Source of the DNA: Bacteroidia bacterium
Lineage (GTDB): Bacteria > Bacteroidota > Bacteroidia > Bacteroidales > SM23-62
Length of the DNA: 52,388 nucleotides
Assembly: GCA_041480755.1 (NCBI GenBank)
Contig: JBGPAO010000001.1
Coordinates: 1-52,388 of the forward strand
Direction of reading: 5' to 3'
The translations under genes and the position numbers were made by a program. The notes under the pieces are model-generated. The model searched no databases. It saw only the letters and a program-made list of their open reading frames with translations, and had not been told where the DNA came from. Below are positions 31,602 to 47,845 of the stretch, in pieces. How positions within the stretch are numbered: the first letter of the stretch is position 1; each line of letters opens with the position of its first letter.

Positions 31602-34412
31602 ATGCCATCAGGGGATAAAAATATAAAAAAAAATATATATATAAAAGGGGCTAAGGTACATAATCTTAAAAACATAGATGTGCTTATCCCCAGGAATAAG
31701 CTCATAGTAATTACCGGATTGTCAGGGTCAGGCAAATCTTCCCTTGCATTTGATACATTATATGCCGAGGGACAAAGACGCTATGTGGAAAGCCTTTCAG
31801 CTTATGCCCGTCAGTTCCTGGGCAGAATGAATAAACCTGAGGTTGAATATATAAAGGGAATCCCACCTGCCATTGCTATTGAGCAGAAAGTAAATACCCG
31901 GAATCCAAGGTCAACTGTCGGGACATCTACTGAGATTTATGATTATCTGAAGCTATTGTATGCAAGAATTGGAATAACATATTCTCCGGTTTCCGGGAAA
32001 CGGGTAAAAAAGCATACAGTGACTGATGTAGTTAATTATATTGGCTCTCTTGGAGAAGGCTCACAAGTAATAATTCTTGCCCCGTATACTTTTCATGAAG
32101 GACGAAATGTGAAAGAGGAGCTTGAATTTTTATTAAAACAAGGTATTACCAGGATCGAATTGAATGGAGAAATATTCAGGATTGATAACCTTACAGTTGA
32201 TAATGAGGTTATTAAGGCAGGAGATAGAATTAATATGGTCATTGATCGTACAATTGTTCAACCGGATGAAGATTCATTATCACGGATCGGTGATTCAGTT
32301 CAAACCGCTTTTGGACTGGGGAAAGGAGAATGCATTGTAAAAATACCTGATAAACCGGATGAATGTGGCTGTTCATTCTCGGACAGATTTGAAGCTGACG
32401 GGATTAAATTTGAAGAACCTGATGTTCATATGTTCAGTTTTAATAATCCCCTTGGCGCGTGTCCGCTATGTGAAGGTTACGGTAAGATAATCGGGATCGA
32501 TGAAGATCTGGTAATACCCAATAAAAGTCTTTCGCTATACGAAGACGCAGTTGTCTGCTGGAAGGGTGATAAAATGAAAAAATGGAAAGAAAGACTTATC
32601 AATACAGCAGATAGGTTTGAATTCCCTATACATAAGCCTTATTATCTTTTATCACCTGAACAAAAGCAATTACTCTGGGAGGGTGACAGGCATTTTAAAG
32701 GAATAAATGCATTTTTTAACTATCTGGAAGAAAAGAAATATAAAATACAGTACAGGGTAATGTTGTCAAGGTACAGAGGTAAAACAGATTGTCCCCGGTG
32801 TAATGGAACGCGTCTGAAAACTGAGGCCTCGTATGTCTTGATCCAGAAAAAGCCGATACAGGAACTTATAATGATACCGGTCAGTGAACTTTTTGAATTC
32901 ATTACAAATCTGAAGTTGAATGATTATGAACAGAATGTGGCAGGAAGGATTCTTCTTGAATTGAAAAACAGGCTTGGATACCTGGTTAATGTCGGACTTG
33001 GCTACCTTACATTGAACAGGCTTTCATCAACGCTTTCAGGTGGGGAATCACAGAGAATTAACCTTGCAACCTCTCTGGGAAGTAATCTCGTAGGTTCAAT
33101 GTATATTCTTGATGAACCCAGTATCGGATTACATACAAGGGATACGCATATGCTCATCGATGTCCTGAGGAAACTCCAGAAACTTGGCAATACTGTAATG
33201 GTAGTTGAACATGATGAGGAGATTATACGGTCGGCAGATGAAATAATTGATATTGGCCCCTTTGCCGGTAATGCAGGGGGACAGGTTGTTTTCCAGGGAA
33301 GGCCTGAGGATATAATAAGATCAGATCAAAGTCTGACTGCAAAGTATCTCACAGGTGAAGAAAAAATCCCTGTTCCACAGATGAGGCGTAAGTGGAACAA
33401 TTGGATCAGGATCAAAGGAGCACGTGAAAATAACCTGAAGGGCATTGATGTCAGATTCCCGCTGAATGTAATAACAGTCGTTACCGGTGTCAGCGGTTCC
33501 GGTAAATCATCACTGGTAAAAAATATTCTTTTTCCTGTACTGAATAAAAGATTTAATGGAACGGGTGATAAATCCGGGAAACATGATCTGGTTGACGGCG
33601 ATCTTCATCTGCTCTCTAGCGCTGAAATGATTGATCAGAATCCAATAGGCAAATCATCCAGGTCCAATCCGGTCACTTATATGAAGGCTTACGATGAAAT
33701 CCGGAAATTATATTCAGACCAGCCGGTTGCTATGATCAATGGATATAAAGCCTCCCACTTTTCTTTTAATATTGACGGTGGCAGATGCGAAGAGTGTCAG
33801 GGAGAGGGAATAATTAAGGTTGAAATGCAGTTCATGGCAGACATAAGCCTGGTTTGTGAAAGCTGTAAGGGAAAAAGATTTAAGGATGAAATTCTTGAAG
33901 TAAGGTACAAGGGAAAAAATATTCATGATCTTCTGGAAACGAGTGTGGATGAAGCAATGGATTTTTTCAGCGGAACAAAAAGCGGTCCTGAAAAAAGGAT
34001 TATTGACAGATTGAAACCACTGGCTGATGTCGGATTAGGTTATGTTAAACTGGGACAGCCTTCCAGTACATTAAGCGGGGGAGAAAGCCAGCGTGTCAAG
34101 CTTGCTTCTTACCTTGTAAAAGAACAATCGCCCAAACCAACCCTTTTTATTTTTGATGAACCGACAACAGGTCTTCATTTTCATGACATCCGCCGGTTGC
34201 TTGATGCCTTTAATGCATTGATTGAAAAAGGCCACAGTGTTCTGATCATTGAACATAATCTTGAAATTATCAAATCAGCCGACTGGATCATTGATCTTGG
34301 GCCGGAAGGCGGTAATGAGGGAGGCAGGATTGTTTTTGAAGGAACTCCTGAGGAAATCATACGAGAAAAAAAATCCTATACAGGCAAATTCCTGGCTAAA
34401 AAACTTAAGTAA
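31602..34412 (+). CDS. uvrA: Excinuclease ABC subunit A
   Basis: The track ORF begins at 31467, but the conserved UvrA N-terminus '[46 protein letters not shown]' follows the ATG at 31602. Two ABC modules are present, each with 'LSGGE.QR' and a Walker B motif. Zinc-finger Cys clusters are also present. Confidence 0.97.
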
Positions 34413-36814: not shown

Positions 36815-39022
36815 TCAGTGAATTATTATTCTTGAGGGGCTTTCAGGTACTATATTGCCTATTATCACTGCGTTATTTACACCGTGTTTCTTGAGGTCAT
36901 TAAGAAAAGATTTGCTTGCATATTCAGGTACAGAAAAAAGCAGGCCACCAGATGTCTGGGCGTCACAGAATATTAACCTGTAATCCTCACTAATACCAGG
37001 TTCCCATTTGATAGATGCATCATAATATTCCCTGTTTCTTTTTGTTCCGCCGGGAATTAAACCCAATCTGAGTAAATCAAAGGTTCCGCTAATAATGGGA
37101 ACCTGTTTATAATTTATTATTGCAGATACTTTGCTGGCAGAGATCATTTCTGTCAGATGCCCGGCAAGTCCGAATCCCGTTATATCAGTGCAGGCGTTGA
37201 CCGGGTATTCATATGCCACTTCCGATGCAGTTTTATTCAATTGTTTCATTAAAGCCACAGTATCATGGATTACCTGGTCAGTTACCTGGCCTTTTTTTAT
37301 GCCGGTAGTGATTATCCCTGTTCCTATCGGTTTTGTCAATATTAAAACATCACCAGGTCTGGCATTGCTGTTGGAGAGAATTTTTGCCGGATGGGCAGTT
37401 CCCGTAACTGACATTCCGAAAATCGGTTCGGTATTTTCAATAGTATGACCGCCGAGGATATATATGCCAGCTTCAGATGCAACTGAACTGGCTCCTTTTA
37501 TAATGGATTCAAGAATTTCCCCGGGAAGTCTGCTGATGGGGAATCCTGCTATATTAAGTGCAAAGAGAGGTTTCCCGCCCATTGCGTAGATATCACTCAG
37601 TGCATTTGATGCGGCAATAGCACCGAAATCGTAGGGATCATCAACAACAGGTGTAAAAAAGTCAACTGTCTGGATTAATGCAGTTTCATCATTGATTTTA
37701 TAAACAGCTGCATCATCTGCATTTCTCGCATCGATTATTACTCTTGGATCATTCGTAAGCGGAATCTCTTTGATTATCTTCTCAAGAAATTCAGGTCCAA
37801 CCTTGCAGGCACAACCCAGACCATGAGTAAATTCTGTGAGCCTGATCCTTGATGCCATTTTTCTGTCAGGTTTTTTACCGGGGGACGATGATATATCCAG
37901 TACCGTACGGATAATTATATCAGCACTTTGTTCTATTTCTTCAGTTGTAGTAAATTTTCCTGTTGAAAACCTGACAGCTCCTATGGCATTATCTGTTGAG
38001 ATCCCCATTGCCTGAAGAACATGAGATATGGAGTGTTTGTCACTGTGGCAGGCAGCACCGGCAGACGCCGCGATCCCGGGCATGGAAGACAGTAATAATC
38101 CGGCATCGATCCCCGGAAAAGCTAAATTCAGAGTATTTGGCAGACAGTTCACAGGATCACCGATGCGCACAACATACTTCACCGCAGAGTTGATTTTATC
38201 ATACAAAAGATCCCGGGTGGCTTTGAATTGGAGAGAGTTTTTCCCAAGATCTCTTTTAGCTATTTCACATGCCTTTCCCAACCCGGCTATTTCCATTACA
38301 TTCTCGGTGCCTGCTCTCCGGTTCCCTTCATGATCTGCTCCATGCATTAGTTTGACTGGCATAATACCGGATCTGATATACAGAGCGCCAATCCCTTTTG
38401 GTCCGTAAAGTTTATGTCCGGCCAGGGAAAGCAGGTCAACACCCAGTTGTCTGATATCAACTTCTATTTTGCCGACTGATTGTGCTGCATCTGTATGAAA
38501 AATTATCCCATTTGATTTTGCAATTTCAGCAATTTCAGCAACATGTTGAATAGTCCCTGTTTCATTGTTTGCATGCATTACAGAGATCAGGATAGTATCT
38601 TTCCTGATTGACTCCCTGAGAATTGATATATCAATAATTCCTGATTGATTAACAGGTATATAGGTTACCAGGAAACCCTTACTCTCAAGATAAGCACAGA
38701 CTTCGAGAACAGCCGGATGTTCAATGGCAGAAGTAATTATGTGTCTGCCTTTATCATGAAATTTTTCTGCAATCCCTTTTATTGCAAAGTTGTTTGATTC
38801 AGTTCCGCCGCTTGTAAATACTATTTCCTCAGGCAGACAATTTAAAAGTAAAGCAACGTTGTTCCTTGCAGATTCAACGGCTTTTTTTGCTTCAAATCCG
38901 AATGAGTGGGAACTGGATGGATTGCCAAAATTTTCAGTAAGGAATGGCCTCATTGCTTCAGCAACCTCCGGATCAACGGGAGTTGTAGCATTATAATCAA
39001 GATAGATGGATTTAACCTGCAT
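36815..39022 (-). CDS. selD: Fusion protein: NifS/IscS-like cysteine desulfurase (or selenocysteine lyase) at the N-terminus and selenide, water dikinase (SelD) at the C-terminus
   Basis: 735-aa uninterrupted ORF. The N-terminal half has 'YLDYNATTP', 'FGNPSS.H', 'FTSGGTESNN', the PLP-Lys segment 'SLAGHKLYGPKG' and the active-site loop 'SAGAACHS'. The C-terminal half begins 'RIRLTEFTHGLGCACKVGP' (SelD Cys/Lys motif, encoded at 37802-37849). It continues with 'DDAAVY', 'TVDFFTP.VDDPY.FG.IAA.NALSDI.AMGG.P' and 'DAQTSGGLL'. Confidence 0.9.
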   Translation of the reverse strand: MQVKSIYLDYNATTPVDPEVAEAMRPFLTENFGNPSSSHSFGFEAKKAVESARNNVALLLNCLPEEIVFTSGGTESNNFAIKGIAEKFHDKGRHIITSAIEHPAVLEVCAYLESKGFLVTYIPVNQSGIIDISILRESIRKDTILISVMHANNETGTIQHVAEIAEIAKSNGIIFHTDAAQSVGKIEVDIRQLGVDLLSLAGHKLYGPKGIGALYIRSGIMPVKLMHGADHEGNRRAGTENVMEIAGLGKACEIAKRDLGKNSLQFKATRDLLYDKINSAVKYVVRIGDPVNCLPNTLNLAFPGIDAGLLLSSMPGIAASAGAACHSDKHSISHVLQAMGISTDNAIGAVRFSTGKFTTTEEIEQSADIIIRTVLDISSSPGKKPDRKMASRIRLTEFTHGLGCACKVGPEFLEKIIKEIPLTNDPRVIIDARNADDAAVYKINDETALIQTVDFFTPVVDDPYDFGAIAASNALSDIYAMGGKPLFALNIAGFPISRLPGEILESIIKGASSVASEAGIYILGGHTIENTEPIFGMSVTGTAHPAKILSNSNARPGDVLILTKPIGTGIITTGIKKGQVTDQVIHDTVALMKQLNKTASEVAYEYPVNACTDITGFGLAGHLTEMISASKVSAIINYKQVPIISGTFDLLRLGLIPGGTKRNREYYDASIKWEPGISEDYRLIFCDAQTSGGLLFSVPEYASKSFLNDLKKHGVNNAVIIGNIVPESPSRIIIH

Positions 39023-39955: not shown

Positions 39956-40612
39956 TCAGGCAGTTTTTATTTTAGAATTATAGTATTTACATATTCCTCT
40001 CACTCCACAATCCGTGCATTTTGGATTTCTGGCGGTGCATATATACCTGCCATGGAGGATCAGCCAGTGATGAGCTTTGCTTATTATTTCCTTTGGAAAA
40101 TTTTGTGTCAGCTGTTTTTCTGCCTGCAGCGGTGTCCTGGCTTTAGATGTAAGACCAATACGCTGAGATACCCTGAAAACATGTGTGTCAACCGGCATAA
40201 CAGGCATCCTGTAAATTACCGATGCTATCACATTAGCTGATTTTCTGCCAACGCCTGGTAATTTCTGCAGAAGTTCTACATCTGCAGGTATTTTATTGTT
40301 AAACTCATTAACAAGTGTTCTGGCCATACCAATAAGATGCTTTGCTTTGTTGTTAGGGTATGAACAACTTTTAATAAGCTCGTACACCTGCTCAGCGGTA
40401 GATGATGCAAGTAATTCTGCTGCAGGAAACCGTTTAAAAAAATCCGGGGTAATCATATTTACCCTTTTATCAGTGCATTGGGCGGATAATATCACGGCAA
40501 CAATTAATTCATACGGATCAGTATATTCAAGTTCCGTTTCAGGTTCGGGCATTACCTCCTGAAAATATTTTACCAGGGTTTTAAACCTTTCTTTTTTTGT
40601 AATTCCTTTCAT
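39956..40612 (-). CDS. nth: Endonuclease III (DNA-(apurinic or apyrimidinic site) lyase)
   Basis: 218-aa ORF with the HhH-GPD segment 'LPGVGRKSANVI', the catalytic 'PVDTHV.RV' and the C-terminal 4Fe-4S cluster 'C.ARNPKC..C.....C'. Confidence 0.95.
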   Translation of the reverse strand: MKGITKKERFKTLVKYFQEVMPEPETELEYTDPYELIVAVILSAQCTDKRVNMITPDFFKRFPAAELLASSTAEQVYELIKSCSYPNNKAKHLIGMARTLVNEFNNKIPADVELLQKLPGVGRKSANVIASVIYRMPVMPVDTHVFRVSQRIGLTSKARTPLQAEKQLTQNFPKEIISKAHHWLILHGRYICTARNPKCTDCGVRGICKYYNSKIKTA

Positions 40613-40680
40613 TTTATCAGAAAAATCATGTATTTAGTTTTAAATTATTGCTTATTCTTGCTAATAATAAAAAGAATGAT

Positions 40681-40688
40681 TAGGTTTG
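40681..40688 (+). promoter_or_regulatory. Candidate -7 promoter box TAGGTTTG for the aromatic-operon leader transcript
   Basis: Exact TAnnTTTG match, 26 nt upstream of the leader-peptide ATG (40714). Confidence 0.4.
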
Positions 40689-40713
40689 TACCGATTTTGA
40701 AAACAGACTGAAA

Positions 40714-40812
40714 ATGACAGTCAAAATTAATGATTTATTAACGGGTTACTTTTATTTCTTCTTTTATTATTTCTTTCAGGTTACTGAAGGCCCGGGCAAG
40801 AAATATAAATGA
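40714..40812 (+). CDS. Phe/Tyr-rich leader peptide (32 aa): MTVKINDLLTGYFYFFFYYFFQVTEGPGKKYK
   Basis: Translated by hand from ATG 40714 to TGA 40810-40812. Codons 12-21 (40747-40776) are ten consecutive Tyr/Phe codons. The ORF lies between a promoter-like box and a terminator hairpin, directly upstream of pheA. Confidence 0.75.
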   Translation: MTVKINDLLTGYFYFFFYYFFQVTEGPGKKYK

Positions 40813-40833
40813 TGCAAACAAAACATTAATAGA

Positions 40834-40864
40834 ATCCCGGGCAGAAAGCCCGGGATTTTTTTTT
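40834..40864 (+). terminator. Attenuator terminator: 9-bp stem ATCCCGGGC/GCCCGGGAT, 5-nt loop, followed by a T-run
   Basis: Read directly: 40834-40842 pairs with 40848-40856, and Ts run to 40864. It lies 21 nt before the pheA ATG. An upstream GGCCCGGGC (40789-40797) can pair with either arm. Confidence 0.8.
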
Positions 40865-40885
40865 ATAAACTAAACACAGCGAACA

Positions 40886-41725
40886 ATGCCAAAAAAAATA
40901 GTTATACAGGGCGGGTATGGAGCATTTCACGAAATTGCAGCTAACTACTATTTCGAAGGTGAGGAAATCGAAATTATGCCAAGGCTTACCTTTAAGGATA
41001 TGATGAAATCCCTTAAAAAGAATAATGCTGATTATGGTATTATGGCTATTGAAAACTCTCTGGCAGGCAGTATTCTGCCAAATTACAGTCTTCTGCAGGA
41101 TTCAAACATGAGAATCATCGGGGAAATATACCTCAGGATTGAACAAAACCTTGTAGTATTACCCGGACAGAAGATAGATCAGATCCATGAAGTCTATTCT
41201 CATCCCATGGCCATACTCCAGTGTCAGGACTTTTTTGATAGTTATCCGCATATTAGGCTCATCGAAAGTCCGGATACCGCATTAAGCGCAAAGGATATCA
41301 GGGATAATGAACTTAAAGGTACAGGAGCGATTGCCAGCAGACAGGCTGCTGAGAAATATAAGCTGGAAATAATCGCTGCCGGAATTGAAACCAACAAAAA
41401 GAATTATACAAGATTTCTTATTATAGTTGAGAATAATCACAATAATAAAGAAATCCTCCCGGTAAATAAAGCATCCATTCATTTTGCGCTTGCCCATAAA
41501 ATAGGAAGTCTTTCAAAGATCCTTTCAATTTTATCATATTATGAAATTAACCTGACTAAGATTCAGTCAATACCAATTATAGGAAAAGACTGGGAATACC
41601 AGTTTTATATTGATGTTGAAATAGAGGATTACTCACTTTATCAGAAATCCCTTGAAGCAGTTAAACCATTTACAAGTAATCTCGGTATTCTGGGTGAATA
41701 TCAGAAGGGGAGGTCAATACTTTGA
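40886..41725 (+). CDS. pheA: Prephenate dehydratase
   Basis: 279-aa ORF with 'IQGGYGAFHE', 'ENSLAGSI', 'SHP.A..QC' and 'NYTRF' followed by a C-terminal ACT domain ('KIGSL..IL'). Confidence 0.92.
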   Translation: MPKKIVIQGGYGAFHEIAANYYFEGEEIEIMPRLTFKDMMKSLKKNNADYGIMAIENSLAGSILPNYSLLQDSNMRIIGEIYLRIEQNLVVLPGQKIDQIHEVYSHPMAILQCQDFFDSYPHIRLIESPDTALSAKDIRDNELKGTGAIASRQAAEKYKLEIIAAGIETNKKNYTRFLIIVENNHNNKEILPVNKASIHFALAHKIGSLSKILSILSYYEINLTKIQSIPIIGKDWEYQFYIDVEIEDYSLYQKSLEAVKPFTSNLGILGEYQKGRSIL

Positions 41726-41726
41726 A

Positions 41727-41764
41727 GAAATGACTAAAATTTGAAATTTGAAATGACTAAAATT
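41727..41764 (+). repeat. 15-nt direct repeat GAAATGACTAAAATT x2 (41727-41741 and 41750-41764) in the pheA-aroG spacer
   Basis: Read directly. The two copies are perfect and offset by 23 nt. Confidence 0.85.
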
Positions 41765-41837
41765 AAACACTCAAATAATTTAAGAGGAGACATCGATTTT
41801 AAGACGTTTTTAGGTTCTTTTTAAAATATCATAGAAA

Positions 41838-42941
41838 ATGAGCATCAAACTGGATATTGAACCATTTGTCGTTGGCGGGATCAAACTTGAAAGGCCGTTC
41901 ATCATCGCGGGTCCCTGCAGTGCCGAAACCGAAGAGCAGGTCATGTCAACAGCAAAACAGATTGCGGGACTGGGAATCAGGGTTTTCAGAGCAGGTATAT
42001 GGAAGCCAAGAACCCGTCCTAATGCATTTGAGGGCGTCGGATCAAAAGGATTAGCATGGCTGAAAAAAGTCAAGGAGGAAACCGGGATGCTTACAGCTGT
42101 CGAAGTAGCAAATGTTAAACACGTTTACGAAGCACTAAAATTTGGGGTGGATATTTTCTGGATTGGTGCCCGGACAACTGCGAATCCTTTTGCAGTTCAG
42201 GAAATAGCAGATACACTGCAGGGTATAGATATCCCTGTCCTTGTTAAAAATCCGGTTAATCCTGATATTGATCTATGGATTGGAGCTATGGAGCGGCTTA
42301 ACCAGGCCGGAATTAAGAAACTGGCCGCAATACACAGGGGCTTTTCAACTTTCGAGAAATCAGGATTCAGAAATAATCCTCAGTGGCAGATCCCAATCGA
42401 GATTAAAAGACGGATACCTGAATTACCTGTAATAACTGATCCAAGCCATATCTGCGGCAACAGGGAGGGATTATTTGAAGTATCACAGGAAGCCATGGAC
42501 CTCAATTTTGAGGGGCTGATGATTGAATCCCACATCGATCCGGATAATGCATTAAGTGATCCCCAACAGCAGGTGACTCCTGAAGAGTTAAAAAAACTTC
42601 TGGACAAACTGGTGATCAGGGATCCTCATATTGAAAATGGCATTTTACTGACAATTGGGGAGCTCAGGGCACAAATTGATGGCCTCGATGACAAAATAAT
42701 TGATATTTTTGAGAAGAGGATGCTGGTCTCTGAAGAAATCGGCCGGTATAAAAAGGAACATAATATATCAATCTTTCAATCGCAACGGTGGGATTCCATA
42801 TTGAATAAGCGCCTGCAGATGGGAGCTGATAAAGGTTTAAGCAGCGATTTTATTCAGACGGTTTTCACAGCCATTCATGAGGAATCAATTAGTCACCAGA
42901 ATAAGATAATGAACCTGGGTAAGGAAACGGAAAGTGATTAA
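41838..42941 (+). CDS. aroG: Bifunctional 3-deoxy-7-phosphoheptulonate (DAHP) synthase type I-beta / chorismate mutase (C-terminal CM)
   Basis: 367-aa ORF. The KDSA-like DAHPS core has 'IAGPCS.E', 'R.G.WKPRT.P..F.G', 'W.GAR' and 'DPSH..G'. The C-terminal roughly 90 aa ('LR..ID.LD..I...F..RM..S..IG..K') form an AroQ-type chorismate mutase. Confidence 0.88.
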   Translation: MSIKLDIEPFVVGGIKLERPFIIAGPCSAETEEQVMSTAKQIAGLGIRVFRAGIWKPRTRPNAFEGVGSKGLAWLKKVKEETGMLTAVEVANVKHVYEALKFGVDIFWIGARTTANPFAVQEIADTLQGIDIPVLVKNPVNPDIDLWIGAMERLNQAGIKKLAAIHRGFSTFEKSGFRNNPQWQIPIEIKRRIPELPVITDPSHICGNREGLFEVSQEAMDLNFEGLMIESHIDPDNALSDPQQQVTPEELKKLLDKLVIRDPHIENGILLTIGELRAQIDGLDDKIIDIFEKRMLVSEEIGRYKKEHNISIFQSQRWDSILNKRLQMGADKGLSSDFIQTVFTAIHEESISHQNKIMNLGKETESD

Positions 42942-42960
42942 TACTTAAATTGAATAATTA

Positions 42961-44001
42961 TTGAGGACAATCGATTTAAATACCGGAACAGGTCATTGCA
43001 GCATAATTACGGGAGGCAATCTGGCAGATTTACCTGCACGGATAGCTGATTGCCGGATAGCGGTGATTACAGATAAGAATGTAAGCCGTTATTACAGGGA
43101 TTTTTTCCCGGCAGGGCTGGTTGCTGAGATTGAACCAGGAGAACAGAGCAAGAACCTGGAGACGGTTCATTCAATTTATGAACAATTGGTTGATGCTGAA
43201 ATTGACAGAAAAGATTTTATCCTTGGAATAGGAGGGGGAGTAGTATGTGACCTGGCAGGTTTCGTTGCGTCCACTTACCTGAGAGGAATGCGGTTTGGAT
43301 TTGTTGCATCCTCCCTGCTTGCCCAGGTGGATGCAGCTATTGGGGGTAAAAATGGAGTTGATTTTAAAAACTTTAAAAATATAATAGGTGTCATCAGACA
43401 GCCTGAATTTGTAATATGTGATCCGGAAATGCTGAAAACACTTAACAGGAAAGAATTCATAGGGGGATTGGCTGAAGTTATTAAATATGGTGCGATTATG
43501 GATAGGGGACTCTTTGAATATTGCGAAAACCGCTCTAAGGAGATACTTGAAATGGATCCTGGAGTGATTGATGAGATTGTTTATATGTCTGCAGGTAATA
43601 AAGTCAAACTCGTTGAAATTGATGAATTTGAGAAAGGAGAAAGGACAAAATTAAATTTTGGTCATACCTTTGCACATGCACTTGAGAAAATATCCGGAAT
43701 TACTCATGGGGAAGCAGTTGCCATTGGGATGAATATTGCCGGGACTATCTCTGTCAGTGAAGGTCTCCTTCCTGAACAGACAGCAATACGCCTGAAATCA
43801 TTAATTCAGAACCTGGGACTTCCTGTTTCACTGGATGCCGATCCAGACGGACTTTTTCAGGCAATCAGGAAAGACAAAAAGAAGAGGGGAGAGGTTATCG
43901 GGCTTGTGCTTCTTGAGGATTTAGGCAAATCTGTAATTAAGTATATGGAACTGGACAGGTTAAAATTTATTCTGAATGATTTGCATCTGCATAGCAAATA
44001 A
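42961..44001 (+). CDS. aroB: 3-dehydroquinate synthase
   Basis: 346-aa ORF with a TTG start. It contains 'GGGVV.DLAGF.ASTYLRG', 'LLAQVDA.IGGK.G', 'EV.KYG' and 'LNFGHT.AHA.E'. Confidence 0.9.
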   Translation: MRTIDLNTGTGHCSIITGGNLADLPARIADCRIAVITDKNVSRYYRDFFPAGLVAEIEPGEQSKNLETVHSIYEQLVDAEIDRKDFILGIGGGVVCDLAGFVASTYLRGMRFGFVASSLLAQVDAAIGGKNGVDFKNFKNIIGVIRQPEFVICDPEMLKTLNRKEFIGGLAEVIKYGAIMDRGLFEYCENRSKEILEMDPGVIDEIVYMSAGNKVKLVEIDEFEKGERTKLNFGHTFAHALEKISGITHGEAVAIGMNIAGTISVSEGLLPEQTAIRLKSLIQNLGLPVSLDADPDGLFQAIRKDKKKRGEVIGLVLLEDLGKSVIKYMELDRLKFILNDLHLHSK

Positions 44002-44617
44002 AAATTATGATCAGTGCAGGCGAATTCTGAATCGCGAGGAATTAGCCGAACTCAGGCTTGATCTGCTGGATCTGACTAAAATTCAGGTTAAGCGGCTTTT
44101 CAGTATACCGGCAGGAACAATTGCAACCTGCCGTGAAGGAAAGTTTTCAGATAGTGAACGTATGGACTTGCTTAAAACCGCAATCTTTAGCGGAGCAAAA
44201 TATATTGATATTGAGCTTGAAATGCCCATCGGGATGAGGGAAACACTCATTAAACTGGCGAAAGAACATAGATGTAAAGTGATAATCTCATACCATAATT
44301 TTGATCTGACACCGCCTATCCCGGAACTGAGGTCGATAATAAAAATATGCAGGGAAGCCGGTGCTGAAATTGTTAAAATTGCGTGCCAGGTGGTTAATCC
44401 TGATGATTCGGCAAATCTGATGTCTCTTTATACACTTGAGAAGAATATCATTTCTTTTGGAATGGGAATCGATGGTCTTATTACAAGATTAGCAGCCCCG
44501 CTACTTGGCGCAGAATTTACTTATGCGGCTGCAGATAAAAACAGTAAAACCGGCCCCGGGCAGGTTACCGGTAAAGAAATGAAGTCTTTTTACAGGATAT
44601 TGGGTTATTCGAAATAG
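43976..44617 (+). CDS. aroD: Type I 3-dehydroquinate dehydratase
   Basis: 213-aa ORF overlapping the aroB end by 26 nt. It contains 'AELRLD', 'YIDIEL', 'IISYHNF..TP' and 'VKIA' (Schiff-base Lys region). Confidence 0.8.
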   Translation: MICICIANKNYDQCRRILNREELAELRLDLLDLTKIQVKRLFSIPAGTIATCREGKFSDSERMDLLKTAIFSGAKYIDIELEMPIGMRETLIKLAKEHRCKVIISYHNFDLTPPIPELRSIIKICREAGAEIVKIACQVVNPDDSANLMSLYTLEKNIISFGMGIDGLITRLAAPLLGAEFTYAAADKNSKTGPGQVTGKEMKSFYRILGYSK

Positions 44618-44679
44618 TTTAAAATGACTTCCGGGAAACTGAAGATTCTGTTGTCAGATTATATTATATAAACATTAAA

Positions 44680-45672
44680 ATGAACAGTTTTGGCAGAATA
44701 TTCCGTGTAACCATCTTCGGGGAATCGCATGGTCCTGCTATAGGAATTGCAGTGGATGGTTGTCCCGCCGGGATCCCTCTGACAGAGGAACATTTCGCCG
44801 AGGATTTCATGCGCAGGAAGAGCGGAAGTCCGGGTACAACTCCGCGAAAGGAAGAAGATGTACCTGAGATCATTAGTGGTGTTTTTAGCGGGTACACTAC
44901 AGGTGCAACGCTTACAGTCATGGTCAGAAACAGAAATGTCAGGTCATCAGACTACGAATCATCGAAGGAAATTCCGCGGCCTGGTCACGCTGATTTTGTT
45001 GCGCTGAAAAAATATGGAGGATTTGCAGATTACCGGGGTGGAGGTCATTTCTCAGGAAGACTTACAACATCTCTGGTAGCTGCAGGTGTCATCGCAAAAA
45101 AAATTATACGTCCTATTCTGTGTGATGCAAAACTTGTTGAAGCCGGAGGATCAAACGATATTGAATCAGCAGTGAACAAAGCCATGGAAGAGAAAGATTC
45201 TATTGGAGGGATTGTGGAATGCAGGATAACAAATGTGCCGGCAGGACTGGGGGAACCTTTTTTCGATTCGGTGGAATCGCTGGTAAGCCATATGATTTTT
45301 TCAATACCTGCAATCAAAGGAATTGAATTCGGATCAGGCTTTAATTCTGCAAAAATGAAAGGGAGTAAACATAATGATAAAATAATCAGCATTAATGGAA
45401 AGACCGGGACTAACTATTCAGGTGGGATAAATGGCGGCATATCAAACGGTAATGAAATAGTTTTTCGTGTTGCGGTAAAACCTACCTCAAGTATCCCGCA
45501 GGACCAGAAAACTTTAAATTTTAAGACAGGCAAATTAGTTGATCTCAGGATTAAAGGCAGGCATGATACATGTATTGCCCTGAGGGTTCCTGTTGTGACA
45601 GAGGCAGCTGCAGCAATTGTACTGGCGGACTTAATGATGCTTGAACAGAAAATTAACAGAATCAATAAATGA
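44680..45672 (+). CDS. aroC: Chorismate synthase
   Basis: 330-aa ORF with 'FGESHG...G...DG.PAG', 'RPGHAD' and 'GGG..SGR.T', and a C-terminal 'RHD.C' region. Confidence 0.93.
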   Translation: MNSFGRIFRVTIFGESHGPAIGIAVDGCPAGIPLTEEHFAEDFMRRKSGSPGTTPRKEEDVPEIISGVFSGYTTGATLTVMVRNRNVRSSDYESSKEIPRPGHADFVALKKYGGFADYRGGGHFSGRLTTSLVAAGVIAKKIIRPILCDAKLVEAGGSNDIESAVNKAMEEKDSIGGIVECRITNVPAGLGEPFFDSVESLVSHMIFSIPAIKGIEFGSGFNSAKMKGSKHNDKIISINGKTGTNYSGGINGGISNGNEIVFRVAVKPTSSIPQDQKTLNFKTGKLVDLRIKGRHDTCIALRVPVVTEAAAAIVLADLMMLEQKINRINK

Positions 45673-45676
45673 AATA

Positions 45677-46456
45677 ATGAAAATTGCAATAATGGGAGCA
45701 GGCAAGATGGGCTCATGGCTTGTGGAAGCACTTTGCCTGGATTATGATGTTGGGGTTTACGATAAAGAGAAGCAAAAGCTGAAATACTTTTTTAATTCTC
45801 ACAAATTCCTGTCTTATGAAGAGATCGGGGTGTTCAATCCTGATTTATTGATAAATGCTGTGACACTTAATAGCACTGTTCAAGTGTTCCGGGAGATACA
45901 GCCATTTTTGAACACAAATTGTATTCTGGCCGATATCACTTCAGTTAAGAATGGCCTCTTTTTGTATTATAAAGAAAGCGGGAAGAGATTTGTTTCGACA
46001 CATCCAATGTTCGGCCCGACATTTGGCAACATTAAGGATCTTAGTACGGAAAATGCAATCATAATAAAGGAATCGGATGAGGAAGGGAAACAGTTTTTCA
46101 GGAAATTTTACAAATCCCTGAAACTAAACATTTACGAATATTCTTTCGAGGAACATGACCAGACTATCGCATATTCCTTATCAATTCCATTCTCATCTTC
46201 ACTTGTATTTGCGGCCTGCATGAAGAAGCAGGAAGCTCCCGGAACCACTTTCAGAAAGCACCTTGAGGTAGCCAGGGGTGTTCTTTCTGAAGATGATTAC
46301 CTCCTGTCAGAAATTCTTTTCAGTCCTTACACAGCGGAGCAGGTGAAAAAAATCAATGCTAAACTTGATTCGCTTATAGAGATAATTACGAACAAGGACT
46401 TCGAGAAGCTGAAACAGTTTTTTGACGGACTCAGGAAAAATATAGAATTGACTTAG
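45677..46456 (+). CDS. tyrA: Prephenate dehydrogenase
   Basis: The preferred start is ATG at 45677, giving the Rossmann N-terminus 'MKIAIMGAGKMGSW', 4 nt after the aroC stop. The track start at 45641 overlaps aroC. It contains 'D..SVK' and 'HPMFGP'. Confidence 0.85.
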   Translation: MKIAIMGAGKMGSWLVEALCLDYDVGVYDKEKQKLKYFFNSHKFLSYEEIGVFNPDLLINAVTLNSTVQVFREIQPFLNTNCILADITSVKNGLFLYYKESGKRFVSTHPMFGPTFGNIKDLSTENAIIIKESDEEGKQFFRKFYKSLKLNIYEYSFEEHDQTIAYSLSIPFSSSLVFAACMKKQEAPGTTFRKHLEVARGVLSEDDYLLSEILFSPYTAEQVKKINAKLDSLIEIITNKDFEKLKQFFDGLRKNIELT

Positions 46457-46498
46457 ATTGTTATTCAGACTGTTTTTCTGGATTTTTTACGTAGAAGA

Positions 46499-47845
46499 TT
46501 AAATAACTGATTTGATCATAAGAATCTGCTTCGTCCACGGACTGATTTTATATCTCTCATCTATTCTCTGGTTGATCACCCACACAATATCTTCATTATT
46601 AAGTAATAGCCACTGGTTTTCTTTATCAACAATGGATATTTTCTGGTCAACCAGGAAATCACTGAGTTTTTTCCTGTGTTTCATTCCAAACGGACGAAAG
46701 TAATCACCGCTTTGCCATTTCCTTATCAGAAGAGGGAATGTAAGAAGATCGTAATCGAGACTGGCAATATTTGGTTCTGAAGGGATATGGAAGCCCGGTG
46801 TGTTTTCAACAACAATAAATTCAAGATGAAGAGGTTCGAAAATCCTGTCAGTTCCTTCAGGTATATAAAACTTGCGGTATTCTTCATCTCCGATTGGAGT
46901 AATTATCATCTCTGACCTGTCTTTGACCAGACGATGGGTGGTTGAAAAAAATTGTTTTCCTGATGTTGCATTGACAGATTCGTCGATATCAGCAATTTGT
47001 TTAGGTGAAAAATGATATTCAGACAAAAATTCAAAAAGATAAGTTTTACGCAGAGGAAGTTCCCTGAGTCTGTCCAGGGAAATTGAAATGATATCATCCT
47101 TTTCTTTTATAATTTCATTTCGCCTGAGATTAATCTCATCAGTATAGATTGACTCAGCATCTCTCAGTTTTTGAATAGTCTCCATCAGGGTATTCCTGAA
47201 GGATGGATTGATTGCTTCAAATAATGGAAGAATCTTATGCCTGATTTTGTTACGTATATATTTTTCAGAAGCATTTGATGAATCTTCACGGTGTGATATT
47301 GAGAATTCATTTGCATATGTCTCAATCATACTCCGGGGAGCAAATAATAAAGGACGGATTATTCTGCCTGAAATGACTTTAATTCCGGTCAGACCATGAA
47401 TGCCTGAACCGCGTGAAAGGTTAATAAAGAAAGTCTCAAGGACATCATCCTGGTTATGGGCAGTGGCAATAAGGTTGAATGACTGCGCTTTGCGTATTTT
47501 ATCGAACCAGTCATACCTGAGTTTCCTGGCTGCCATTTGGATAGAAATGCCCTGGTCTTCAGCATATTCCTCAGTATCAAATCGCTTATAGAAAAACCTG
47601 ATGCCATACTGGTATGCCAGCTGGCGTACAAAATCTTCATCTTCATCTGATTCAGCACCGCGAAGGCCAAAATTACAATGGGCTATTCCGCAATTATAAC
47701 CTGCTTTAATAAACAGATCCAACATTACCACTGAATCAATACCTCCGCTTACAGTCAGAAGAATTTTATCAGATTTCCTGATAAGATGGTTTTCCCTGAT
47801 AAAGGACCGGAACTGGTCAAGCATTATATTCAGTTTATTGAACAA
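46499..47845 (-). CDS. tilS: tRNA(Ile)-lysidine synthetase
   Basis: 448-aa ORF with the PP-loop 'LTVSGGIDSVVM', 'IATAHN.DD..ET' and a C-terminal TilS substrate domain. Confidence 0.92.
   Translation of the reverse strand: MFNKLNIMLDQFRSFIRENHLIRKSDKILLTVSGGIDSVVMLDLFIKAGYNCGIAHCNFGLRGAESDEDEDFVRQLAYQYGIRFFYKRFDTEEYAEDQGISIQMAARKLRYDWFDKIRKAQSFNLIATAHNQDDVLETFFINLSRGSGIHGLTGIKVISGRIIRPLLFAPRSMIETYANEFSISHREDSSNASEKYIRNKIRHKILPLFEAINPSFRNTLMETIQKLRDAESIYTDEINLRRNEIIKEKDDIISISLDRLRELPLRKTYLFEFLSEYHFSPKQIADIDESVNATSGKQFFSTTHRLVKDRSEMIITPIGDEEYRKFYIPEGTDRIFEPLHLEFIVVENTPGFHIPSEPNIASLDYDLLTFPLLIRKWQSGDYFRPFGMKHRKKLSDFLVDQKISIVDKENQWLLLNNEDIVWVINQRIDERYKISPWTKQILMIKSVI

Follow-up and report, generated by a model that had tools for sequence, protein, structure and literature searches.

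We describe an element in the 273 nt that separate nth (39956-40612, minus strand) from pheA (plus strand, from 40886) in DNA of an uncultured Bacteroidales bacterium (contig JBGPAO010000001.1 of assembly GCA_041480755.1, positions 1 to 52,388), a stretch of 52,388 nucleotides that is referred to here, at its full length, as the window. The element is very probably a classical ribosome-mediated leader-peptide transcription attenuator of the six-gene aromatic amino-acid operon that begins with pheA. A first-pass annotation of the window had proposed such an attenuator in a gap of this size; the gene coordinates confirm the gap, and conservation, covariation and geometry support the proposal, to which we add a putative protector segment and kinetic switching between the alternative RNA pairings.

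The leader open reading frame (ORF) occupies 40714-40812 on the plus strand, begins with ATG in an A/T-rich context and comprises 32 codons followed by UGA; its translation, MTVKINDLLTGYFYFFFYYFFQVTEGPGKKYK, is identical to the one first put forward. Codons 12-21 (40747-40776, plus strand) are the regulatory run and the proposed site of ribosome stalling, being ten consecutive Tyr/Phe codons of which six encode Phe and four Tyr, and Trp is absent from the leader. The 171-nt leader folds at -45.1 kcal/mol, with a z-score of -5.8 against dinucleotide shuffles, none of 200 of which was as low.

Phe and Tyr are readily encoded by T-rich sequence and the sub-threshold Rfam hits to the region are mostly terminator-driven, so the first question is whether this is a chance ORF of an AT-rich intergenic region that happens to adjoin an ordinary or bidirectional terminator and plays no regulatory role. 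Ten aromatic residues in ten were never reached in shuffled sequence: across 5000 shuffles of the gap, the number of Phe or Tyr (F/Y) in any ten residues of the resulting ORFs never exceeded seven. Among all short ORFs of 8-60 amino acids on both strands of the window and 80 related loci (about 700 kb), 68 of 14,517 contain at least seven F/Y per ten residues, and such ORFs occur almost nowhere but upstream of pheA, 64 of the 68 lying within 460 nt of that gene and on the same strand.

The window holds only one other short ORF with at least seven F/Y in ten, a minus-strand frame of 17 residues at 31608-31661, which adjoins no aromatic-pathway gene and is probably a chance product of T-rich sequence. 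A scan of the window for other leader-like ORFs, with runs of His, Trp, Thr, Leu or Ile/Val codons, gave nothing convincing.

The leader was compared with 80 loci from species-representative genomes (the GTDB set, whose PheA proteins are 67-91% identical) and 80 metagenome contigs. In the genome set, every one of the 76 loci with enough upstream DNA has a short ORF with 6-10 F/Y in ten residues, and three of the four with too little upstream DNA are those in which the F/Y-run ORF was not seen; in the metagenome set an ATG-started ORF of this kind is present in 74 of the 80 contigs, the other six being truncated upstream or lacking a clear leader. Taken together, the two sets give about 150 related Bacteroidales loci in which an F/Y-run ORF precedes pheA, ending 46-300 nt before that gene. 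Comparison of the regions upstream of pheA, of the kind that the first-pass annotation had suggested, recovers a conserved short F/Y-run ORF accompanied by covarying antiterminator and terminator arms, and the ORF and its run are kept together with the terminator, rather than relatives losing the ORF and run while the hairpin persists.

The encoded peptides are 13-35 amino acids long (median 19) and the aromatic run is the sole part conserved family-wide, the remainder changing between subfamilies (for example ...GYFYFFFYYFFQVTEGPGKKYK, MNAGLFAYFYFFFFWVHAGPGSL, MAFRSSAYFFYFFTCR and ...NFFGFWFYFFYSLKCFRD). Every run mixes Phe and Tyr: those of 121 distinct peptides contain 584 Phe, 352 Tyr and 34 Trp, and Trp occurs in or beside the run in 38 of these 121 (as in FFFFW, FGFWFYFFY and FWYFFYFYFF), which suggests that the Trp-containing members may sense all three aromatic amino acids. 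A conserved run within a diverging peptide is the signature of a regulatory leader and not of a functional peptide. The latter explanation, in which a small hydrophobic or aromatic product (a membrane micropeptide or a TnaC-like arrest peptide) is what matters and the hairpin merely ends the transcript, could draw on the start codon and A/T-rich start context of the ORF and on N-terminal codons that are highly conserved as nucleotides in the closest subfamily. We nevertheless hold it to be very unlikely: only the run survives the family's variation in length, Phe and Tyr interchange freely at each of its positions, no conserved C-terminal motif of the sort required by arrest peptides was seen, and the element always lies directly before pheA, with no promoter evident between terminator and gene.

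Two observations on the leader ORFs stand somewhat apart. The nucleotides of the N-terminal leader codons (window 40723-40746, AAAATTAATGATTT.TT.ACGGGTT) are near-invariant in nine relatives whose flanking spacers vary, and within this stretch a role, that of the protector described below, is proposed for CGGG alone. In about 30 of 131 related loci two complete units, each with an F/Y leader ORF and a terminator, lie in tandem upstream of pheA, as in L012:3760-4000, where MKKIFEYNYFYFN and a terminator are followed by MNLNVFTYYFFYFFWIRSGPGSM and a second terminator. Tandem units are found also in L003-L006, L009, L091-L098, L010, L013, L023, L026, L027, L030, L032-L034, L053, L089, L095, L099, L101, L117 and L122; some counts of three units are artefacts of long protector hairpins, and in the window and its closest subfamily there is just one unit. 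A sharper response would be expected of tandem leader-terminator units.

Downstream of the ORF lies an intrinsic terminator. The core recognised at the outset, a stem of 9 bp (40834-40842 with 40848-40856) followed by a T-run to 40864 that ends 21 nt before the pheA ATG, is confirmed, and basal A-U and G-U pairs extend it to 12 bp with a predicted stability of about -21 kcal/mol. In the four-segment scheme that we adopt, the 5' arm AGAAUCCCGGGC (40831-40842, plus strand) is segment 3 and the 3' arm GCCCGGGAUUUU (40848-40859, plus strand) is segment 4; the loop is 5 nt and the U-run (T9) is read at 40856-40864 on the plus strand. The plus strand from 40600 to 47000 has no second strong intrinsic terminator, and because nth is divergent this one cannot serve to end an upstream gene. 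In each of the 77 GTDB-set elements scanned (the window and 76 loci), leader and pheA are separated by a GC-rich hairpin (CCC/GGG core) and its T-run, and no promoter is evident in the stretch between terminator and pheA, which measures 16-50 nt in most loci.

The strand that would compete for the terminator lies inside the leader coding region. Codons 26-28 (GGC CCG GGC; GGCCCGGGC at 40789-40797) contain segment 2, the antiterminator 5' strand GCCCGGG (40790-40796, plus strand). The expectation of a CCCGGG-core antiterminator with seven G:C pairs is borne out by nascent folds, in which only the terminator 5' arm and loop have been transcribed: wherever the ribosome stalls among codons 12-21, the minimum-energy fold in the window contains a 7-bp, all-G:C helix, its exact register now refined to 40790-40796 with 40836-40842. 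By these computations the pairing is mutually exclusive with the terminator, in the window and in the family. The geometry is also shared, since in nearly all GTDB-set loci a complement of the terminator 5' arm, 6-10 nt long, has its start 8-17 nt beyond the final aromatic codon, and in most loci the antiterminator starts at about -24 to +7 nt relative to the end of the leader stop codon, within the footprint of a ribosome positioned at the stop.

Three 13-nt segments (antiterminator, 5' arm and 3' arm) were aligned in register for 123 distinct elements. Terminator positions pair in 87% of cells and antiterminator positions in 74%. The terminator covariation score is 0.44 (0.20 in shuffles) and that of the antiterminator 0.281 (0.153 in shuffles); in neither case was any of 500 shuffles as high, and every slid register of the antiterminator scored lower. 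Its most variable pair, columns 4/23, is found as GC 42, AU 18, UA 13 and CG 10 times, and the triple change between the window subfamily (GCCCGGG/CCCGGGC/GCCCGGG) and a neighbouring one (GACCGGG/CCCGGTC/GACCGGG) illustrates how all three segments move together. The antiterminator register was picked by best complementarity, and the search was repeated against the arms of other loci as a control, giving 7.33 contiguous pairs for cognate combinations and 5.93 +/- 0.12 for re-optimised non-cognate ones. Dinucleotide-shuffle tests of single loci are individually weak (62% of loci at p <= 0.05) and were replaced by the covariation and non-cognate controls. Three covarying segments, conservation in about 150 loci, the confinement of F/Y-rich ORFs to the region before pheA and the lack of any plus-strand upstream gene in need of a terminator, nth being divergent, leave the chance ORF effectively refuted by the comparative data and barely worth entertaining.

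Nascent folds of the same 123 elements indicate how the position of a ribosome would act on this choice. With the ribosome mid-run the antiterminator forms in 85% of elements, and with the ribosome at the last aromatic codon in 71%; the figures are 0% for a ribosome at the stop and 53% for no ribosome, so that the proposal of an exclusive antiterminator, free when the ribosome is stalled and covered when it reaches the stop, extends to the whole family. A comparison of terminator and antiterminator energies had been suggested for the window: in the full-length transcript the terminator (about -21 kcal/mol) is always in the minimum-energy fold, even with a stalled ribosome, and it wins at equilibrium. 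A purely thermodynamic switch was rejected, as the antiterminator is never favoured in full-length leader folds; antitermination must therefore be kinetic.

The alternative pairings alone do not reveal what selects between them, and the same terminator/antiterminator switch might be run by a trans-acting factor, the ORF being incidental; an RNA-binding protein resembling TRAP or PyrR, an uncharged tRNA and a small ligand are all candidates. Leader translation is predicted from the sequence, and the antiterminator forms without a ribosome in the 53% of nascent folds just mentioned, both of which leave some room for such a factor. The one feature conserved throughout is, however, an in-frame Phe/Tyr run with a start and a stop, while flanking peptide and nucleotides vary, and the spacing of the antiterminator from both run and stop codon is fixed. 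No unpaired binding motif is conserved, Rfam yields no T-box, riboswitch or other hit, and about 40-55 nt of RNA is all that separates the run from the terminator. We consider a trans-acting factor unlikely on these grounds.

In the attenuator that we favour, transcription would start a few nucleotides after the TAGGTTTG box described below, and the 32-codon leader would be translated while RNA polymerase advances. With charged tRNA-Phe and tRNA-Tyr plentiful, the ribosome would pass the ten F/Y codons and, on reaching UGA, cover GCCCGGG (40790-40796); the 12-bp terminator (40831-40859 with U9) could then form and transcription would halt before pheA. If either charged tRNA were scarce, the ribosome would stall within 40747-40776 and mask the protector (40741-40746), leaving GCCCGGG free to pair with 40836-40842 as this emerges and before the 3' arm is made, and the polymerase would read through. 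Were the leader not translated at all, pairing between protector and segment 2 would be expected to favour termination. The segments, their conservation, covariation and geometry are observed features of these loci, to which leader translation, stalling, kinetic competition and the physiological response are added as a model.

The putative protector is segment 1, CGGGUU at 40741-40746 (plus strand), and was proposed from RNAalifold and duplex energies; it would pair with 40789-40794 if the run were free of ribosomes. In the RNAalifold analysis of nine close relatives, an invariant CGGG just 5' of the run pairs with CCCG of the antiterminator strand, and the window duplex CGGGUU/GGCCCG has an energy of -9.7 kcal/mol. 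Family-wide, cognate protector/antiterminator duplexes average -8.08 kcal/mol and non-cognate ones -6.10 +/- 0.18, a moderate signal; complementarity reaches p <= 0.05 in 35% of loci, and the region complementary to the antiterminator strand is the stretch that a stalled ribosome would cover. The protector would complete the classical four-segment design, and it is the weakest-supported part of the element.

Other foldings of the leader were also considered. A small predicted hairpin, CUUUCAG-GUUA-CUGAAGG (40773-40790, plus strand), adjoins the antiterminator strand and is kept in the nine close relatives with one-sided changes only. A 5-bp hairpin, GACUG...CAGUC (40706-40722), whose loop would hold the leader AUG, shows no conservation among the nine closest relatives and probably arose by chance, and the long-range pairing of 40726-40732 with 40824-40830 in the window minimum-energy fold is likewise not conserved and its spacer is variable.

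Several points weigh against attenuation as we propose it. Support in this lineage is computational, not experimental. The terminator is favoured at equilibrium despite a stalled ribosome in the window and in 83% of elements, so that antitermination must rest on kinetics that we infer. The protector pairing in the window is short, only 4-6 bp, and the antiterminator strand of the window sits 13-22 nt 5' of the stop, such that under a conservative footprint (-12 nt) a 5-bp antiterminator remnant would be possible with the ribosome at the stop. The covariation statistics are not corrected for phylogeny, the only safeguard against the choice of register by best complementarity is the re-optimised non-cognate control, the closest subfamily of the window shows no compensatory changes, and one locus (L083) has an uncompensated G-to-A change in its antiterminator strand.

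Upstream of the leader ORF, the -7 box that had been claimed is present as TAGGTTTG at 40681-40688 (plus strand), with 25 nt between it and the leader ATG; read from the sequence, it conforms to TAnnTTTG, which we take to be the promoter consensus of the Bacteroidota. In the nine closest relatives TTAG[GT]TTTG is invariant, and variation is seen in the spacer that follows the leader stop codon and downstream of the T-run. An exact TAnnTTTG lies at most 80 nt upstream of the leader ATG in 51 of 132 elements, as against 6 of 132 on the opposite strand, and ends 12-40 nt (mostly 18-26 nt) before the ATG. The distance from box to ATG fits the short 5' untranslated regions of Bacteroides, whose modal length is 23 nt (PMC7366714).

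The first gene under the proposed control is pheA (40886-41725, plus strand), which encodes prephenate dehydratase with an ACT domain (Pfam PF00800, E = 1.7e-55); the best NCBIfam match is also prephenate dehydratase, at 195.5 bits and under the curated cut-off of 219. By its PheA homologues the window falls among uncultured Bacteroidales. By Pfam and NCBIfam matches, and with approximate starts, there follow on the plus strand a DAHP synthase/chorismate mutase fusion (41838-42941), aroB (42961-44001), a type I aroD (43976-44617), aroC (44680-45672) and a tyrA-type prephenate dehydrogenase (45641-46456), after which comes a convergent tilS. The first-pass statement that the operon contains both pheA and tyrA therefore holds, tyrA as a tyrA-type dehydrogenase, and relatives whose contigs extend far enough keep the order pheA, DAHP synthase/chorismate mutase, aroB, aroD, aroC, tyrA. 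On the other side of the leader, the divergent nth (minus strand) encodes HhH-GPD and EndIII Fe-S domains. Elsewhere in the window, a minus-strand ORF of 735 amino acids (36815-39022) joins a class-V aminotransferase, similar to cysteine desulfurase/selenocysteine lyase, to AIR-synthase-related N and C domains that resemble selenophosphate synthetase/ThiL.

Searched against Rfam at gathering thresholds, neither the window nor 20 relatives gave a match. Hits from a permissive scan (MicC, Phe_leader and Leu_leader) were rejected as evidence of membership, being sub-threshold and driven by the terminator, and a T-box or riboswitch-type attenuator was set aside for want of an Rfam hit and for the short distance between run and terminator noted above. 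The best sub-threshold hit of the leader type was to RF01859 Phe_leader, the E. coli pheL-pheA leader, at 27.6 bits (E = 0.013), far short of the gathering threshold of 55, so that homology is not detectable; outside the terminator the alignment confidence is low. The two elements do share a Phe-rich leader ORF, a terminator just before pheA and, with the putative protector, a four-segment logic. The pheL leader senses Phe only, with seven Phe in 15 codons, and controls one bifunctional gene, whereas the window leader mixes Phe and Tyr, places its antiterminator strand within the leader coding region and precedes an operon covering the common pathway, chorismate mutase, pheA and tyrA.

The use of a dual-amino-acid sensor had been presented as distinctive, and the mixed Phe/Tyr run is indeed there, but multivalent sensing as such has precedents. 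In E. coli a single leader may mix codons for several amino acids, as do thrL (Thr and Ile) and ilvL (Ile, Leu and Val). As in the window, the mixed codons of these leaders match an operon that feeds several end products; the amino acids, operons and phylum are different and there is no sequence relationship.

Nor is the element new to the phylum. Leader-peptide attenuation, which the first-pass annotation had called only sparsely documented there, has known examples in the Bacteroidota. The Bacteroid-trp leader (RF01692) is a leader-peptide-type motif upstream of the Trp operon in Bacteroidetes (Weinberg et al. 2010, PMC2864571); it has in common with the window element the leader-peptide mechanism, aromatic biosynthesis and the phylum, and differs in its Trp codons, its trp operon and its RNA family. 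Among the 30 matches that a scan of 40560-40960 listed at E <= 10, RF01692 does not appear, and it gave no gathering-level hit.

The closest precedent is the pheA 5' region of Flavobacterium psychrophilum (THC0290_N_0195), for which Guérin et al. (2021, ISME Commun, PMC9723704) mapped a transcription start site and a 171-nt 5' segment, reported condition-dependent read-through, seen in minimal medium, and annotated a leader-peptide attenuator (Table S7 and Appendix D9) that is conserved in other Flavobacteriaceae and has no Rfam hit. That read-through lends the predicted response to limiting charged tRNA its only indirect support. Antiterminator, covariation and phylogenetic spread were not described for this leader (PMC9723704). 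In our reanalysis of the published sequence, an antiterminator strand, AGGGATTG, lies 9 nt after the run and pairs with CAATCCC of the terminator. Both leaders are upstream of pheA in the same phylum and have a mixed aromatic run (MNTNNTFYSNNSFYFYWNIGRDCYMVI in F. psychrophilum), an antiterminator just 3' of it and a terminator with a CCC/GGG core and a long U-run. They differ in that F. psychrophilum belongs to the Flavobacteriia and the window to the Bacteroidia, in the operon (pheA-aspC3 against six genes from pheA to tyrA) and in the run, which in F. psychrophilum is shorter, interrupted and includes Trp (FYFYW) where the window has ten consecutive F/Y; the former also has transcriptome evidence, while the window element is known only from its DNA. 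The architecture is thus shared between F. psychrophilum and the roughly 150 Bacteroidales loci, though elements of such small size allow no proof of common descent. A literature search for other described Phe/Tyr leaders in Bacteroidota, beyond Guérin et al. 2021, gave nothing specific, Ryan et al. 2020 having mentioned only generic small ORFs reminiscent of leader peptides in B. thetaiotaomicron.

Taken at their widest, these likenesses would describe a phylum-wide and as yet uncurated Bacteroidota family, from Bacteroidia to Flavobacteriia, of multivalent aromatic attenuators that sense Phe and Tyr jointly, with Trp in about a third, occur in tandem in about a quarter of lineages and form the principal transcriptional control of a super-operon for the shikimate pathway and both terminal branches; our judgement of this broader claim is evenly balanced. 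How amino-acid biosynthesis is regulated in Bacteroidota has been little charted, and the phylum has unusual promoters and largely does without Shine-Dalgarno-led initiation, yet the element would imply tight coupling of transcription and translation. The concept of attenuation is unchanged by this work, the value of which lies in annotation, in breadth and in a testable model. The set of roughly 150 members, with its three-way covariation between the protector/antiterminator, the terminator 5' arm and the 3' arm, offers a basis for a curated RNA family, which would be useful because Rfam has none, and it supports both the annotation of an overlooked small ORF and predictions of how aromatic amino-acid synthesis is tuned in gut and sediment Bacteroidales.

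Leader-like units appear in one further setting. The 437-nt ilvE 5' region of F. psychrophilum (PMC9723704, Table S7) contains repeated units of this kind (ATGACAACAAATACAATTATTATTAT...), each with a terminator hairpin of its own, which suggests that tandem leader attenuators may serve the branched-chain amino acids of Bacteroidota as well.

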